Positions 661 to 6,417 of a DNA stretch of 7,410 nt are shown piece after piece. Under the pieces are notes generated by a model that had not been told where the DNA came from, made no database searches, and saw nothing but the letters and a program-made list of their open reading frames with translations. Numbering within the stretch: position 1 is the stretch's first letter; every line of letters begins with the position of its first letter. The position numbers and the translations under genes are program-made. Source of the DNA: a virus (Duplodnaviria > Heunggongvirae > Uroviricota > Caudoviricetes); the IMG/VR virus record IMGVR_UViG_2600254985_000002, positions 1 through 7,410 of that record; one strand, 5' to 3'.

Positions 661-1554
661 TTGAATTTATTTGATAAAGTACAGACAGCTAAGCACTTAA
701 AAGAGCGTGAAGACTTAATAAATTTAAAAGATGACTGGCTTATTGATACGTTAATGCCAAGTTCACAAGCTGGAATACTTGTAGCTCCATTTAAGTCATT
801 TAAAAGCTCTCTAGCAATGCACATGGCTTTAATGGTATCGCAAGGGTTACCTTTTTTTGGTTATGATACAAAGCGAAGCAAGACACTATACATAGACAAT
901 GAAGATACTGACAGAGAGTTAAACAAAAGGCTTAGAAATAAAGATAATGCACCAGAAGACTTACATTTTTTGACAGGTGGAGAGTTTATGCTTGATGATT
1001 CGCACCACATGAACTTATTATATGAATACATTAAAGAAAATGATATAAAATTCGTGATCTTGGATAATTTAATGACAATGCTAAGAAATGGAGACATTAT
1101 CTACGGTAAAGACTTTGAACCAATGCTTAGGAGAATTACACGCTTAAAGTTACTTTTCCAAGACGTTACTTTCTTGTTAGTAGCTCATGCAAACAAATCA
1201 GCTTATGCAAACTCAATGGACGATAAAGCATATATGGTAAAGCCTAGTGACGCCTTGGGTGGTTCTACTCTAACAGCATGGGCAGAATTTATGTTAATGT
1301 TAAGCCCTAAACGTGGCAAGCATAACGACTTCTCTAAGTTATCAGTCAAAGCGCGTGGATATCAGTTTGACGATGATTTAAACTTTTCATACGTTGATTC
1401 AGTATTCACTTGCGTCAATAAATCAAAAAAAGAACCAGATAGCGAACTAGTGGAAAAAGTAAAGGCTGAAACTCCAATCGAAACGACGAAAGAATCGGCA
1501 CAGGCTTTCTTAGACTTAGCTAAAGAGAAAGGAAAAGTAACAGAAAATGAGTGA
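661..1554 (+). CDS. RecA-like P-loop NTPase (AAA_25 / DnaB-C-terminal-like); putative replication or recombination ATPase
   Basis: 297-aa ORF with TTG start and GAGAGG RBS (646..651). P-loop-like VAPFKSFKSS, Walker B-like KFVILDNL, and FLLVAHANK motif, in the spacing typical of RecA-fold helicase/recombinase cores. Family call is from motif layout by eye, not a search. Confidence 0.6.
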   Translation: MNLFDKVQTAKHLKEREDLINLKDDWLIDTLMPSSQAGILVAPFKSFKSSLAMHMALMVSQGLPFFGYDTKRSKTLYIDNEDTDRELNKRLRNKDNAPEDLHFLTGGEFMLDDSHHMNLLYEYIKENDIKFVILDNLMTMLRNGDIIYGKDFEPMLRRITRLKLLFQDVTFLLVAHANKSAYANSMDDKAYMVKPSDALGGSTLTAWAEFMLMLSPKRGKHNDFSKLSVKARGYQFDDDLNFSYVDSVFTCVNKSKKEPDSELVEKVKAETPIETTKESAQAFLDLAKEKGKVTENE

Positions 1555-1741: not shown

Positions 1742-1958
1742 AGTGTACGGTTGGTTATATCGTGCATTAGATGAAATGGTAAAAGCAGAATGGCATAATG
1801 ACGAACTTTTCAAAGTATGGCTTGGACGTGCTGAATTTCTAGTCAGACAGTCGAAAAAATTGCATGCAGCTTGCGAAAATGATTATTCTAAGCGTGCATT
1901 GATTAGGGCATTACAATTAAAAGTAGAAATAAATAAAAAAATATCATCTAATATTTGA
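1692..1958 (+). CDS. hypothetical protein (88 aa; start may be the ATG at 1701)
   Basis: ORF with GAGAG-like RBS; protein-like composition (…AEVYGWLYRALDEMVKAEW…). Its stop TGA (1956..1958) sits inside the -35 of the next promoter. Confidence 0.5.
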   Translation: MNSMNDYKNKAIILHAEVYGWLYRALDEMVKAEWHNDELFKVWLGRAEFLVRQSKKLHAACENDYSKRALIRALQLKVEINKKISSNI

Positions 1959-1983
1959 CAACGATAATTAATTTTGGTATAAT
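1955..1983 (+). promoter_or_regulatory. sigma-A type promoter: TTGACA (1955..1960), 17 bp, TGgTATAAT (1975..1983)
   Basis: Perfect consensus -35 and -10 with TG extension, followed by a TATAGAAA element and AAGGAGAA RBS before ATG 2015. Confidence 0.65.
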
Positions 1984-2014: not shown

Positions 2015-2401
2015 ATGGTAGTCAAATTAACGCAAAAACAAGCTGATTATCTTGAAACTTTTGGAAACCTTGAAGATGAAATAAACAAAAAACGAGCGCT
2101 TTGTCACATCACTCGTTTTGGTTATGGATACAATTGGATAGGCGGCGATAAATGTCCAAGTAGTGCTTTTGAGTGTTACGAGCAATTGAAAATGGTTGAA
2201 GCTGTCATTAACGGTTATGAAGTTATTGAACCTAAATTTAAGTTTTATAACTTTTCTGATAGTAGCGGAGGAACTGCATTATATTATGCTGGACAGTCTA
2301 AACAATTAACAAAATTCGAGCAAGATGCTCTTGAAGTTAAAGAGGGGAGCGAGGAATATAAAGCTTTGTTAGCTTTAGGTTTCGTTGAAGAAGAAGTATG
2401 A
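2015..2401 (+). CDS. hypothetical protein (128 aa)
   Basis: ATG with strong RBS downstream of a consensus promoter; acidic C-terminus. Stop overlaps the next start (ATGA at 2398..2401). Confidence 0.7.
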   Translation: MVVKLTQKQADYLETFGNLEDEINKKRALCHITRFGYGYNWIGGDKCPSSAFECYEQLKMVEAVINGYEVIEPKFKFYNFSDSSGGTALYYAGQSKQLTKFEQDALEVKEGSEEYKALLALGFVEEEV

Positions 2402-2685
2402 TAACATCTTTTGAATCACTAGCTGAAAGACGATCGATAACTCTTAATTATCACAAAAAGGATAGTCAGCAGTACATCAACAGCTTAAATTACTTTGAAT
2501 ATGCTAGAATGTACTTTGAAAAAAATGGCTTTCCTGATGATAACAGACGAGTTTATCAAAGTGGCAAGCGAAAAGGCCAAAAAGTTAGTTGGTCTGATAA
2601 AGAGGAAAAACAGCAGAAAGACGATATTAGAAAGTTCATATATGAAAAGCAACTACAAAAGTTTAAGGGCAGAAGAAAAAGCTAG
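2398..2685 (+). CDS. hypothetical protein (95 aa)
   Basis: ATGA coupling to the upstream gene supports the start. C-terminal half is Lys/Arg-rich and low-complexity, and it overlaps ORF 2495..2908 in another frame. Confidence 0.45.
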   Translation: MITSFESLAERRSITLNYHKKDSQQYINSLNYFEYARMYFEKNGFPDDNRRVYQSGKRKGQKVSWSDKEEKQQKDDIRKFIYEKQLQKFKGRRKS

Positions 2686-2908
2686 TAAACATTACGCTAG
2701 AGGTGTCAGAAAGCTATCTAAAGAGCTTGAGGAAATGAACGAAACAAAGTATAGGGCAGAGCCTAACGAGTGCTTATATGGCTTGATAAGCGAATTATGG
2801 AGCTATTGGGGTAAAGGTTGGATCCTGCCTATGCTTAAATATAATATTGAAATTACAAGACAAGGCGACGTCTTCATTGTAGAAAGAGGAGTAAATGGAA
2901 ACAATTAA
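2495..2908 (+). CDS. hypothetical protein (true start uncertain: TTG 2495, ATG 2642 or ATG 2735)
   Basis: The 3' part (…ECLYGLISELWSYWGKGWILPMLKYNIEITRQGDVFIVERG…) looks protein-like and its end is coupled to the next gene (ATG 2895 inside the last codons). The 5' part overlaps 2398..2685 by up to 190 nt. Confidence 0.4.
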   Translation: MNMLECTLKKMAFLMITDEFIKVASEKAKKLVGLIKRKNSRKTILESSYMKSNYKSLRAEEKASKHYARGVRKLSKELEEMNETKYRAEPNECLYGLISELWSYWGKGWILPMLKYNIEITRQGDVFIVERGVNGNN

Positions 2909-3191
2909 TATTAAATTTGATGAAAAACAGCTAGAAGAAGTTGTGAAAAAAGTTACTGAAAAACTTAAAAAAGAGAAAGATTCAGATACAGCAAAGGAAA
3001 AAGTGTCAGTAATGTATTTAGAATTTAATGAAGCAAATCATGCAAGCGAGAAAGGTAAACTTTACTTTGGGCATGCTTTTCACACTTTGTCAAAAAAGTA
3101 TGCTTCGGAGTTTTATTTATCTAGTGAATCTGATTTGACAAAAGCCTCAGAGCTTAAAAGCCAAGGTTGGAGAGAAGAGGTTATCGAATGA
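2895..3191 (+). CDS. hypothetical protein (98 aa)
   Basis: ATG with GAGGAG RBS (about 2884..2889). Stop TGA (3189..3191) overlaps the next ATG (3188). No recognisable motif. Confidence 0.6.
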   Translation: METINIKFDEKQLEEVVKKVTEKLKKEKDSDTAKEKVSVMYLEFNEANHASEKGKLYFGHAFHTLSKKYASEFYLSSESDLTKASELKSQGWREEVIE

Positions 3192-3754
3192 GTGTATTTG
3201 AAGAACTAAGCGTTATTAATGTAAATGATAAGAAAAGCAAAAAGAATAATTTAGATTATCTTAGTTGGGCATATGCATGGTCTGAAGTTAAAAAAGTATA
3301 TCCTGAAGCTAACAGTAAAGTTTATGAAAATGAACAAGGGTTAAATTATCACACAGACGGTCGCACAGCATGGGTTAAGGTTGGTATGACTATTGAGGGC
3401 TTGGAGCACATTGAATACTTGCCTGTAATGGACTATCGTAACCAATCTATCCCAGTTGAAAAACTGACTTCTATGGACGTAAATAAAGCCATTCAGCGTG
3501 GACTAGTTAAGGCAATTGCTCGTCATGGTTTAGGGCTATATATTTATGCAAATGAAGATTTACCAGTTCTAACAGAAGAACAAAAAGAGCTTGAAGCAGA
3601 AAAACAACGACTTAGAGAGATTCAGCCACTTATAAAACGAGCTGAACAACTAGGATACCAAAATATTGACAGCTTGAAAAATAAGACTAAAAAAGAAATT
3701 ACCGACATCATGAAGATTTGGTTAGCACAGCAAGAAACAGAAAAAGGGGAATAA
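3188..3754 (+). CDS. putative phage single-strand annealing / recombination protein (Sak3/DUF1071-like)
   Basis: Track ORF begins at 3167, but ATG 3188 has RBS GGAGAGAAGAGG and an ATGA overlap with the upstream stop. Motifs LDYLSWAYAWSEV and AIARHGLGLYIYANEDLP recalled as typical of this SSAP family; position immediately upstream of an SSB-like gene is the classic sak-ssb arrangement. Family assignment is from memory. Confidence 0.5.
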   Translation: MSVFEELSVINVNDKKSKKNNLDYLSWAYAWSEVKKVYPEANSKVYENEQGLNYHTDGRTAWVKVGMTIEGLEHIEYLPVMDYRNQSIPVEKLTSMDVNKAIQRGLVKAIARHGLGLYIYANEDLPVLTEEQKELEAEKQRLREIQPLIKRAEQLGYQNIDSLKNKTKKEITDIMKIWLAQQETEKGE

Positions 3755-3758
3755 TTAA

Positions 3759-4118
3759 ATGGCAATCATCACAGTAACAGCACAAGCGAATGAAAAAAAT
3801 ACACGTACAGTAAGTACAGCAAAAGGCGATAAGAAAATTATTTCAGTCCCATTATTTGAAAAAGAAAAGGGATCTAACGTAAAAGTTGCGTACGGTTCGG
3901 CTTTCTTGCCTGATTTCATTCAATTAGGTGACACAGTAACGGTCAGCGGTCGTGTACAAGCCAAGGAATCAGGAGAATACGTAAATTATAACTTTGTTTT
4001 CCCTACGGTTGAAAAAGTATTTATCACTGATGATAATAGTAGTCAATCACAAGCTAAACAAGACTTATTTGGTGGTTCTGAACCTGTTGAAGTTGATGAA
4101 TCAGAACTTCCTTTCTAG
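3759..4118 (+). CDS. ssb: single-stranded DNA-binding protein (phage SSB-like)
   Basis: 119 aa with strong RBS (AAAGGGGA). Gly/Gln-rich flexible region followed by acidic tail ending DESELPF, matching the SSB C-terminal acidic-tip pattern (D-D-D-I-P-F type). Sits directly after the putative annealing protein. Confidence 0.55.
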   Translation: MAIITVTAQANEKNTRTVSTAKGDKKIISVPLFEKEKGSNVKVAYGSAFLPDFIQLGDTVTVSGRVQAKESGEYVNYNFVFPTVEKVFITDDNSSQSQAKQDLFGGSEPVEVDESELPF

Positions 4119-5288: not shown

Positions 5289-5537
5289 ATGAAACAAAAA
5301 TACTTTAATGACAAAAGATATTGCCACTGCTTCGATATACCAATGAGTAATGGTTTAGGAGTTTGCAAAGATTGTAGAGGATACGTGAACATCTGTTATA
5401 GTTGCGATCGCTGTCTACACTGCTGGTTTACATCACAGGTTGAACTATTTACCGAATATGATGAACCTAAGTTGCTGGAACTTATAGAAAACTGGAATAA
5501 ATTTTACCAAACTAGAAAGACAATAAATAATGCTTAG
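5289..5537 (+). CDS. Cys-rich putative zinc-binding small protein (82 aa)
   Basis: Cys/His pattern C-H-C … CKDC … CYSC-x2-C-x-H-C within about 35 residues. Stop overlaps the methyltransferase start (ATGCTTAG). Confidence 0.6.
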   Translation: MKQKYFNDKRYCHCFDIPMSNGLGVCKDCRGYVNICYSCDRCLHCWFTSQVELFTEYDEPKLLELIENWNKFYQTRKTINNA

Positions 5538-6417
5538 TTTAGACGAGAAGAAAATCAGAAAAGGTAAACCTATTGGATTACCATACCAAGGAAGCAAGAA
5601 AAAGATAAGCAAGAAAATAGTTGAGATTATCAAACAGAACTTTGGCACAGACAAGCCGATATACGACATCTTCGGAGGAGGCGGAGCAATTACATCCGAA
5701 TGTATTTTAAATGGCTTAGAAGTATATTATAACGACTTAGACAAGGATATAACCAACGCTTTTGAACGAGTTATCTCTCAAGACCGTGAGTGGATTAAAA
5801 GCCTTATTGTTTCACGTACAGAGTTTACCGAGATTAAGGAGAAAGAAAACAAGACAACAGATGACTTTTTGAAGTTGCTGATTAACTCTTTCGGTAATAA
5901 AAAGAGAGATTATTTATATTCTAAAGAAATTTCAGATTTAAAATATAATCTAGCTAAAGAAATAATTGAAAAGCATGACGTTTTTAGTGGTTATAAACAG
6001 ACCAAAACATATAAGAGATCGATTGAAAAGTACAAACAACTTCAACAACTTCAACGACTTCAACAACTTGAACGACTTGAACAACTTCAACGAATTCAAC
6101 AACTTCAAAAATTAAATAAAATAAAAGCTACAAGCAAAAGTTATCATGCTTTTAGTGATGTTTCTGGAGCTATTCTATATCTTGACCCCCCTTATGAAGG
6201 AAGTCACCAAAAAGGTTATATTAATCAATTCGATAGTCAAGAGTTTTATGACTGGGCATTTGTAATGGCTAAAAATAACATCGTGATAATTTCAAGTTAT
6301 TCAATTTCAGATGAACGCTTTGAAGCTGTATATTCTTTTGACAAAGCGCGCAGCACTCTCCAAAGTGGAAGAAGCAAAAAAGAAAATGAGAAATTATTTA
6401 TGGTTAAAAACAGTTAA
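5530..6417 (+). CDS. N6-adenine DNA methyltransferase, D12/Dam-like (alpha-class motif order)
   Basis: N-terminal G-S-K-K-K-I region, FGGGGA AdoMet-binding motif (5671..5688), NDLDKDI block, and catalytic DPPY (6184..6195) in the order motif I … DPPY. Well-established family hallmarks. Confidence 0.85.
   Translation: MLSLDEKKIRKGKPIGLPYQGSKKKISKKIVEIIKQNFGTDKPIYDIFGGGGAITSECILNGLEVYYNDLDKDITNAFERVISQDREWIKSLIVSRTEFTEIKEKENKTTDDFLKLLINSFGNKKRDYLYSKEISDLKYNLAKEIIEKHDVFSGYKQTKTYKRSIEKYKQLQQLQRLQQLERLEQLQRIQQLQKLNKIKATSKSYHAFSDVSGAILYLDPPYEGSHQKGYINQFDSQEFYDWAFVMAKNNIVIISSYSISDERFEAVYSFDKARSTLQSGRSKKENEKLFMVKNS
6034..6114 (+). repeat. imperfect 9-bp tandem repeat (consensus CAACAACTT, about 9 units) inside the methyltransferase ORF
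   Basis: Units in order: aaacaactt, caacaactt, caacgactt, caacaactt, gaacgactt, gaacaactt, caacgaatt, caacaactt, caaaaatta. In frame, encoding KQL-QQL-QRL-QQL-ERL-EQL-QRI-QQL-QKL. Confidence 0.85.

Follow-up and report, generated by a model that had tools for sequence, protein, structure and literature searches.

In the Lactococcus phage sk1, a pair of small early genes, ORF39 (NP_044985, 95 aa) and ORF38 (NP_044984, 133 aa), lies on the minus strand (21735-22239) between ORF40 and the sak/ssb genes, behind the early promoter E5, and the same pair occupies the same place in phage p2. The sk1 record gives ORF38 a long form that overlaps ORF39 by about 185 nt; the p2 record (PP906166) has a 288-nt gene followed by a 261-nt gene, the latter beginning at the ATG equivalent to position 2642 of the sequence described below. 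A literature search for Pfam family DUF7413 (PF24185), of which the second gene is a clear member, returned no paper mentioning it, and a search for ORF38 and ORF39 of sk1/p2 gave nothing relevant. The two genes are not listed in the sk1 ribosome-profiling paper or in three of its supplements (PMC10986495), nor are they mentioned in the p2 ORF47 paper.

The sequence analysed here (hereafter the window, the whole stretch of 7,410 nt) belongs to a Lactococcus Skunavirus of the 936/sk1 type, in which it forms the early/replication module, and has 99.8% identity to phage 63302. It carries direct orthologues of the sk1/p2 pair, with 92.5% nucleotide identity over the region, which we call genes A and B; the region of both ORFs was found in 377 Skunavirus records. 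An earlier note on this DNA had drawn attention to two ORFs in different frames (2398 to 2685 and 2495 to 2908) that overlap by about 190 nt at a +1 offset, with a run of seven A residues within the overlap and internal ATGs at 2642 and 2735 in the second frame. All of these coordinates were confirmed, as was the coupling of the first ORF to the gene upstream and of the second to the gene downstream. The first ORF has 95 aa and the second 137 aa if counted from a TTG; the second is in the +1 frame relative to the first, and the two share 191 nt (2495 to 2685). The features of the region are as follows.

1955 to 1983, plus strand: early promoter, a consensus sigma-70 site (TTGACA, 17-nt spacer, TATAAT, with a TG extension; 12/12 consensus match).
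2015 to 2401, plus strand: upstream early gene, 128 aa, homologue of sk1 ORF40 (phrog_2228); its stop codon TGA and the gene A start codon together form ATGA.
2398 to 2685, plus strand: gene A, a 95-aa basic three-helix protein, homologue of sk1 ORF39 (phrog_1632).
2495 to 2641, plus strand: open +1 frame of 147 nt, very probably a spurious, non-coding 5' extension of the second ORF.
2519 to 2525, plus strand: A7 homopolymer in gene A, codons GAA AAA AAT (E41 K42 N43).
2629 to 2634, plus strand: AGAAAG, a weak Shine-Dalgarno-like sequence located 7 nt 5' of ATG 2642.
2642 to 2685, plus strand: 44-nt overlap of genes A and B, the latter in the +1 frame.
2642 to 2908, plus strand: gene B, 88 aa, the short form of sk1 ORF38 (phrog_1449; Pfam DUF7413 positions 40-128).
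2895 to 3191, plus strand: next early gene downstream (phrog_5462, 98 aa), which has a strong Shine-Dalgarno sequence (AAAGAGGAG); its first 14 nt, from the ATG on, overlap the end of gene B.

The promoter corresponds to early promoter E5 of sk1, whose -35 and -10 signals are placed by the sk1 record at the homologous position, just 5' of ORF40. The plus strand between gene A and gene B contains no promoter-like or terminator-like site, and transcription from 1955-1983 would be expected to yield a single transcript carrying both genes. The gene at 2895 is followed by sak (ATG 3188), and genes A and B encode small orphan folds in this replication/recombination module, upstream of sak and ssb. 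The Pfam profile search gave nothing for protein A and only DUF7413 for protein B, and PHROGs gave only families of unknown function for both. We consider it highly probable that A (2398-2685, 95 aa) and B (2642-2908, 88 aa) are two independent small early genes with a 44-nt overlap, and that no conserved product is translated from the +1 frame 5' of 2642. Gene A would be read in one frame straight through the A7 run to its TAG stop (2683-2685), and gene B would be initiated at ATG 2642 behind a weak AGAAAG Shine-Dalgarno sequence in an unstructured, A-rich stretch. Each of the two products, of 95 aa and 88 aa, is modelled with confidence on its own by AlphaFold2.

Gene A matches phrog_1632 over its full length (residues 1-95 on profile positions 1-95 of 95, E 1e-52). 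Its homologues, of 81-103 aa, are found in Ceduovirus, in the Uwajimavirus PLgY-16 and in metagenome contigs, and an alignment of 30 sequences of this family shows R12, Y18, H19, Y26, L30, F33, E34, R37, Y39, F40 and P46 to be invariant. The last three of these flank the residues that the A7 tract encodes, and K68, Q73, I77 and I81 are conserved further downstream. In the AlphaFold2 model (pLDDT 91.1), the tract-encoded residues fall within the helix 23-43; the protein ends in a basic tail, EKQLQKFKGRRKS.

The same two families occur together outside Skunavirus, in an arrangement that bears directly on their relationship. Lactococcus garvieae phage PLgY-16 encodes a 100-aa homologue of A with 36.5% identity and a 74-aa homologue of B (hmmsearch E 3e-12) as orf38 and Orf36, in the same order as in the window and upstream of HNH and SAK genes, and two metagenome contigs (L025, L026) have the same order. 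In all three, however, A and B are apart, without overlap and with one or two small ORFs between them, and this non-adjacency establishes that A and B are independent genes. In Ceduovirus (c2-type), an 81-aa early protein (M6162 gp11, vL_20A CDS0019) is homologous to protein A, with 32-39% identity and a shared NxL(N/T)(Y/F)FEYARxYFxxxGFP core, and is encoded upstream of the gene for an Erf-like annealing protein; it differs in lacking the basic C-terminal tail, the part that in Skunavirus overlaps with B, and no homologue of gene B was found in Ceduovirus. Contig L024 likewise has family A without B.

Alignment of the locus with 19 relatives (84-100% identity) established which frame is under selection in each segment. 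Frame A has a pN/pS of 0.13 over 2398-2493 and 0.07 over 2494-2640. Over 2495-2641, 32 of the 43 variable sites fall at the third codon position of frame A, which is the second position of frame B (binomial P = 4e-8), and the frame-B pN/pS is 1.47, the same as the 1.61 seen over 2399-2494, where stops close that frame. In the overlap (2641-2683), which comprises only 14 codons, pN/pS is 0.20 in frame A (2641-2682) and 0.26 in frame B. Selection passes to frame B after 2686, with pN/pS values of 0.04 over 2687-2734 and 0.17 over 2735-2890.

A long gene B of 123-137 aa, starting at TTG 2495, ATG 2501, ATG 2525 or ATG 2537 and sharing about 150-190 nt of dual-coding sequence with A, would fit several observations: no stop interrupts the frame-B extension in any of the 19 close relatives or of the 120 best cluster representatives, products of 123-137 aa are given by gene callers and by several curated records, and the Pfam DUF7413 model covers the extension, whose frame-B translation includes MAFLMITDEFIK and LVGLIK. 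The openness is, however, expected from composition. When the protein A sequence was held fixed and its synonymous codons were redrawn from the codon usage of the window, the +1 frame was open over 2495-2641 in 71% of 20,000 trials (P = 0.71) and the +2 frame in 0.005%; under a harsher null, in which the codons of ORF A were shuffled, the +1 frame stayed open for 63 codons or more in 6% of trials. The part of protein A encoded here is rich in K/E/R/Q/D/N/G and has few of the NTA/NTG-type codons able to create +1 stops, and it is because this K/E/R-rich protein offers few chances for such stops that the frame is open upstream of 2642. The synonymous diversity of frame A is not depressed over the extension (pS 0.40, vs 0.32 in the A-only segment), the four candidate starts have no Shine-Dalgarno pairing (-0.4 to -2.1 kcal/mol), Phi43 and Phi4.2 show losses of ATG 2501 and ATG 2525, and the extension is absent from distant homologues and from two divergent contigs (L027, L028), in which in-frame stops stand 0 and 6 codons before the gene B ATG. 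The database annotations and the Pfam model go back to the same ORF calls and so are not independent evidence. Model positions 1-39 correspond to the frame-B reading of 2525-2641, so that about 39 N-terminal positions of the 128-position model are an out-of-frame translation of gene A and the model does not represent translated protein over its whole length; the real DUF7413 domain is about 85-90 aa. The substitution pattern already goes most of the way to refuting the long form of gene B, which we regard as very unlikely. Low-level initiation upstream of 2642 is still conceivable, because the extension is open in relatives and the long form is found in many GenBank/RefSeq records and in Pfam DUF7413.

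The boundary of gene B at ATG 2642 was established by several lines of comparison. The match to the 88-position profile phrog_1449 covers residues 50-136 of the long ORF and thus begins at ATG 2642, and distant homologues of protein B (36-49% identity, 72-92 aa), obtained in an exhaustive search of 1.84 billion representative proteins, align only from residue 50-52 of the long ORF and match DUF7413 only at model positions 40-120. They conserve the N-terminal YKS..AE.KA motif of protein B, whose N-terminus is MKSNYKSLRAEEKA. ATG 2642 is kept in 19/19 relatives. The 88-aa form scores 193.1 bits against DUF7413 and the 137-aa ORF 270.3 bits, with a gathering threshold of 27 bits, and the AlphaFold2 model of the 88-aa protein has a pLDDT of 87.5 and a pTM of 0.77. 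The duplex formed upstream of ATG 2642 with the 3' tail of the 16S rRNA is weak (-5.0 kcal/mol, the 22nd percentile of all window positions), but similar to those at the accepted starts 1692 (-5.6) and 5530 (-5.5), and it lies between -4.2 and -5.2 kcal/mol in all 19 relatives. The surrounding stretch is A-rich, and folding of 2596-2705 found no RNA structure masking the start (z = 0.22). We infer that ribosomes initiate directly at 2642, possibly aided by those translating or terminating on gene A. Initiation at ATG 2735 instead, which would give a protein of 57 aa and no overlap between A and B, is annotated in two records (Phi4.2 and Phi43) and has a GAGG just upstream in the window (-5.8 kcal/mol); in most relatives, however, this pairing is weaker (-2.1 to -3.2 kcal/mol), and 2687-2734 is the most constrained part of frame B, with 11 of its 16 variable sites at position 3, which places the beginning of the gene B coding sequence upstream of ATG 2735. 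The residues KHY.R.V.KL encoded by 2687-2734 are moreover conserved in distant homologues and make up a helix modelled with high confidence, and frame B has no other start codon between 2642 and 2735. We therefore consider the start at 2735 extremely improbable; the proposal of two separate genes with an internal start at one or other of these ATGs holds for 2642 and fails for 2735.

The two other options of the earlier note, a single gene disrupted by an indel of 1 nt in the homopolymer and programmed frameshifting, are contradicted by the comparison. An ancestral gene of about 170 codons, split at the tract by a sequencing error or as a pseudogene, has in its favor that removal of one A would join residues 1-42 of protein A to frame B, and that one fused ORF of 165 aa is known, on a metagenome scaffold of 1,482 nt (P0183). 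This fusion is nevertheless a singleton, produced by a 4-nt deletion near 2545-2549, away from the tract, which in that scaffold reads GAGAAAAAT. Odd-length matches on other sequences (P0179, P0185, P0186, P0187) show frame hops or run on into unrelated sequence and were treated as assembly or sequencing errors. None of the 19 aligned sequences has an indel anywhere in 2398-2890 or a change of length at the tract, an uninterrupted ORF of about 170 codons spanning both parts was found in 0/19 of them, and none of the 120 best frame-B cluster representatives is longer than 142 aa. A7 is expected to be the true reading in this isolate, since several phages sequenced independently have an identical sequence. 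In three phage genera, the frame-A conservation of protein A extends to either side of the tract, and A and B form distinct families that differ in distribution, so a split gene has next to no likelihood. Relatives show two separate genes with an internal start, the outcome that the earlier note had named as a refutation, and the homopolymer does not vary by insertion or deletion, although the run itself is not invariant, being broken by a G in most of them.

Homopolymer-dependent recoding is well known from the A AAA AAG site of dnaX (-1 frameshift), from the A6G/A7 sites of IS elements and from slippage on long A/T runs; seven A residues are fewer than in the runs known to give efficient transcriptional slippage in bacteria. 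The present locus has in common with such sites only a short A run in a coding sequence with another frame open downstream, and differs in that the run is not conserved, the -1 geometry is wrong, the downstream frame is unselected and there is no conserved fusion. A +1 or -2 frameshift at the tract, or slippage dropping one A, would yield a minor fusion of the N-terminus of A to B beside protein A, and homopolymeric A runs can support slippage, with the +1 frame indeed open 3' of this one. The tract is a minority allele, however: it reads TTTGAAAAAAAT in 8 of the 19 aligned genomes and TTCGAGAAAAA(T/C) in 11, the interrupted form, GAGAAAAAT, being also that of most cluster representatives, and the 11 genomes without A7 read GAGAAAAA(T/C) at the slip site, so that the slippery sequence is not conserved. 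When the frame-B ORF is clustered at 90% identity, only 5 of its 120 best representatives have the LKKM reading that corresponds to A7. The change between alleles is synonymous in frame A (F-E-K-N) and replaces L-K by S-R in frame B, and the frame entered after the putative shift is under no purifying selection from the tract to 2641. A classical -1 slip on A AAA AAT would enter the third frame and meet a TGA four codons later, gene B has its own conserved ATG and Shine-Dalgarno sequence, and a fusion is impossible in relatives in which A and B are apart or stops lie in the extension. Programmed recoding is accordingly barely credible here, and, as far as the aligned genomes can tell, the A7 tract is no recoding signal but an incidental allele that lacks conservation.

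The pair is ordinary, already annotated, and correctly delimited in several GenBank records (p2 PP906166, CB20, ASCC337), among which the p2 record has the structure that we conclude for the window. Our comparison indicates that the long ORF38 of the sk1 record, which differs from this structure, is over-extended; the last few codons of B also differ between sk1/p2 and the window because the downstream gene differs. Gene B is over-extended in many Skunavirus records (sk1, 712, jm3, 63302, 16802, 38503, 38507), and as a consequence gene A is omitted altogether in several of these. The added value of the present analysis is thus annotation clean-up only, with little biological weight. It illustrates that composition alone leads one to expect a long alternative-frame ORF in a K/E/R-rich gene, and that a short homopolymer in such an ORF is not to be taken for a recoding signal without comparative support.

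The short +1 overlap of A and B is conserved beyond the close relatives, measuring 59 nt and 53 nt in the two divergent contigs with stops just before the gene B ATG (L027 and L028, respectively). Its variable sites in the alignment are distributed 4/3/7 over the frame-A codon positions, which is not different from uniform in only 14 codons. It is conceivable, if unlikely, that the 44-59 nt overlap of these three divergent lineages is functional and couples the synthesis of B to the translation of A, for example if ribosomes on A were to deliver to, or re-initiate at, the weak start of B; less likely still, a low-frequency +1 shift within 2642-2685 might generate an A-B fusion. Either mechanism would fix the ratio of two proteins acting together in early phage DNA metabolism.

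Our analysis showed that gene A, the homologue of sk1 ORF39, is 2398-2685 (95 aa) and that gene B, the homologue of sk1 ORF38, is 2642-2908 (88 aa), the frame of the latter being only accidentally open over 2495-2641. The earlier note had placed the elements of this region correctly: ORF 2398-2685 is ATGA-coupled to ORF 2015-2401, ORF 2495-2908 comes to 137 aa counted from TTG, the two overlap by 191 nt at a +1 offset, and the run of seven A at 2519-2525 (A7), the in-frame ATGs at 2642 and 2735 and the next gene start at 2895 are all as it described. The window, 7.4 kb in length, represents the early (replication/recombination) module of a 936/sk1-type Lactococcus Skunavirus; phage 63302 shares 99.8% identity with it over 2015-3191, a region matched in 362 phage records, every one a Lactococcus phage or Skunavirus, and 2398-2908 is present in 377 records at 84-100% identity.

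Features of the window
661-1554, AAA-type ATPase
1955-1983, + strand, promoter
2398-2685, + strand, gene A
2642-2908, + strand, gene B
2895-3191, + strand, ORF of 98 aa downstream of gene B
from 3188, Sak
3759-4118, SSB

The promoter, upstream of ORF 2015-2401, is a perfect extended sigma-70 consensus (TTGACA, 17-nt spacer with TG, TATAAT) and corresponds to early promoter E5 as annotated in sk1; no terminator lies between genes A and B, so both belong to one early transcript. The record of phage 63302 calls ORF 2895-3191 a 'putative HNH endonuclease'; Pfam gives it no HNH match (best DUF6304, E 0.07), its best PHROG is phrog_5462, of unknown function, and its position in relatives is taken by far longer HNH genes (~500 nt). 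This name has the look of an annotation carry-over; alternatively, the ORF may be a remnant. In the middle of ORF 5530-6417, at 6035-6108, a 9/18-nt unit is repeated in tandem (~8 or 4 copies with 84-89% matches); the repeat codes for a QQLQRLQQLERLEQLQRIQQLQKL stretch.

For the long overlap the earlier note had offered three options: two separate genes with an internal start for the second, one gene split by a homopolymer indel, or programmed frameshifting. These readings were weighed in an alignment of the window with 18 relatives (19 sequences, identity 84-100%), in which selection was followed by frame.

pN/pS in frames A and B of the 19 aligned sequences (+ strand)
2398-2494, frame B closed by stops: A 0.13, B 1.61
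2495-2641, disputed extension: A 0.07, B 1.47
2642-2682, true overlap, 14 codons only: A 0.20, B 0.26
2687-2734, upstream of ATG 2735: A 1.21, B 0.04
2735-2890: B 0.17

The split gene is not supported: none of the 19 sequences has a gap in 2398-2890, so that there is neither homopolymer length variation, the A run being invariant in length, nor a single fused ORF. Frameshifting at A7 is contradicted by the frame B ratio over 2495-2641 and by the distribution of the tract, which is present as TTTGAAAAAAAT in only 8/19 sequences and replaced by TTCGAGAAAAA(T/C) in the remaining 11, a change that is silent in frame A (F-E-K-N) and turns L-K into S-R in frame B. Of the 120 best representatives of second-ORF clusters (90% identity), only five have LKKM, the reading that goes with A7, and all measure 142 aa or less. 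Within gene A, the tract amounts to an incidental allele. Over 2495-2641, frame-A codon position 3 takes 32 of the 43 variable sites (binomial P = 4e-8), and frame-A pS is not depressed (0.40 vs 0.32 upstream), which argues against hidden dual coding. With the protein A sequence fixed and synonymous codons redrawn from window codon usage, 71% of trials kept the +1 frame open over 2495-2641; protein A is rich here in K, E, R, Q, D and N, and NTA/NTG codons are almost absent. A long open +1 frame is thus unremarkable.

What stands is the reading of two separate genes, with ATG 2642 and not 2735 as the second start. The start at 2735 is ruled out by 2687-2734, where frame B is already under strong constraint, and no other start codon lies between the two ATGs. 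ATG 2642 is present in 19/19 aligned genomes and is preceded, 7 nt upstream, by AGAAAG, whose pairing with the 16S 3' tail (-4.2 to -5.2 kcal/mol across these genomes) is weak yet on par with accepted starts of the window; the RNA near 2642 is unstructured. At the upstream candidates 2495, 2501, 2525 and 2537 such pairing is essentially nil, and two of the four are mutated in some relatives.

When the 137-aa ORF was searched exhaustively with HMMER against 1.84 billion representative proteins, distant gene B homologues (36-49% identity, 72-92 aa) aligned only from query residue 50-52 and matched DUF7413 at positions 40-120 only. Two are encoded on divergent Skunavirus-like contigs, L027 and L028, with the gene order of the window; there the A and B homologues overlap at a +1 offset by 59 nt (2001-2059) and 53 nt (1203-1255), with in-frame stops 0 and 6 codons before the second ATG, so conservation holds for the short overlap and not for the long extension. 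The B proteins of the three overlap-keeping lineages are only 41-49% identical. The overlap in the window is 44 nt, and its +1 arrangement is conserved in divergent relatives. In the three lineages (44, 59 and 53 nt), the overlap joins the basic C-terminal tail of protein A to the N-terminus of protein B. Unlike these, L. garvieae phage PLgY-16 and contigs L025 and L026 carry the B homologue separately, without overlap, one or two ORFs downstream of the A homologue, and Uwajimavirus-like phages have the genes apart, with the basic tail of protein A nonetheless retained. Ceduovirus has protein A homologues (81-103 aa) and no gene B homologue. Across 30 protein A family members, Y39, F40 and G44-F45-P46, which flank the A7-encoded codons, are conserved in frame A, as are K68, Q73, I77 and I81 downstream.

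A single 165-aa protein found with protein A, P0183, joins the N-terminal half of protein A to DUF7413; it comes from one 1,482-nt metagenome scaffold and arises from a 4-nt deletion near 2545-2549, and its A tract is GAGAAAAAT. A few other metagenome or draft-genome proteins (P0179, P0185, P0186) switch frames at A runs and then back, a sequencing-error signature. A regular A-B fused product is unsupported by any of these proteins. P0185 (57 aa), filed as 'hypothetical protein MX081_09925 [Streptococcus uberis]', translates the Skunavirus region in frames B, A and B again, which suggests phage DNA with indel errors in a bacterial draft assembly. Some metagenome variants of protein A (L023 612-989; P0173, P0175, P0176, P0180) keep the first ~73 residues (to ...KEEKQQKEE), after which another C-terminal module follows (ARFLRSLLELDGTTRINAEL... 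or EFKSMASNIIDNSG...); this would point to a recombination junction shortly before the usual gene B start.

The window pair corresponds to sk1 ORF39 and ORF38, and annotators dispute its structure.

Annotation of the pair in public records
Both ORFs, long overlap: sk1, BM19
Long second ORF alone, gene A unannotated: 63302, 712, jm3, 16802, 38503, 38507
Gene A and short gene B from the 2642-equivalent ATG: p2 PP906166, LP0903, 4R15L, ASCC337, CB20, PhiF0139, PhiE1127
Gene A and gene B from the 2735-equivalent ATG: Phi4.2, Phi43

Gene A is unannotated in the GenBank/RefSeq Skunavirus records of the second group and in P4565; omitting loci include L001 (NC_049409) 3387-3487, L005, L010, L014, L016, L017 and L018. 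In the records that omit it the ORF itself is intact and shows high conservation, and in most of these an over-long ORF38-type call has displaced it. In PHROGs, a 95-position family covers the first ORF over its full length and an 88-position family matches the second at residues 50-136 only. Pfam DUF7413 (PF24185), with 128 positions, spans most of the disputed extension, and ~39 of its N-terminal positions correspond to window 2525-2641, an out-of-frame translation of gene A. The true domain is ~85-90 aa, and the N-terminal third of the model is spurious. The gene A/gene B arrangement is itself ordinary and already in public annotation, and the finding serves only to point out ORF38-type calls that are too long, records lacking gene A and the spurious N-terminal third of DUF7413.
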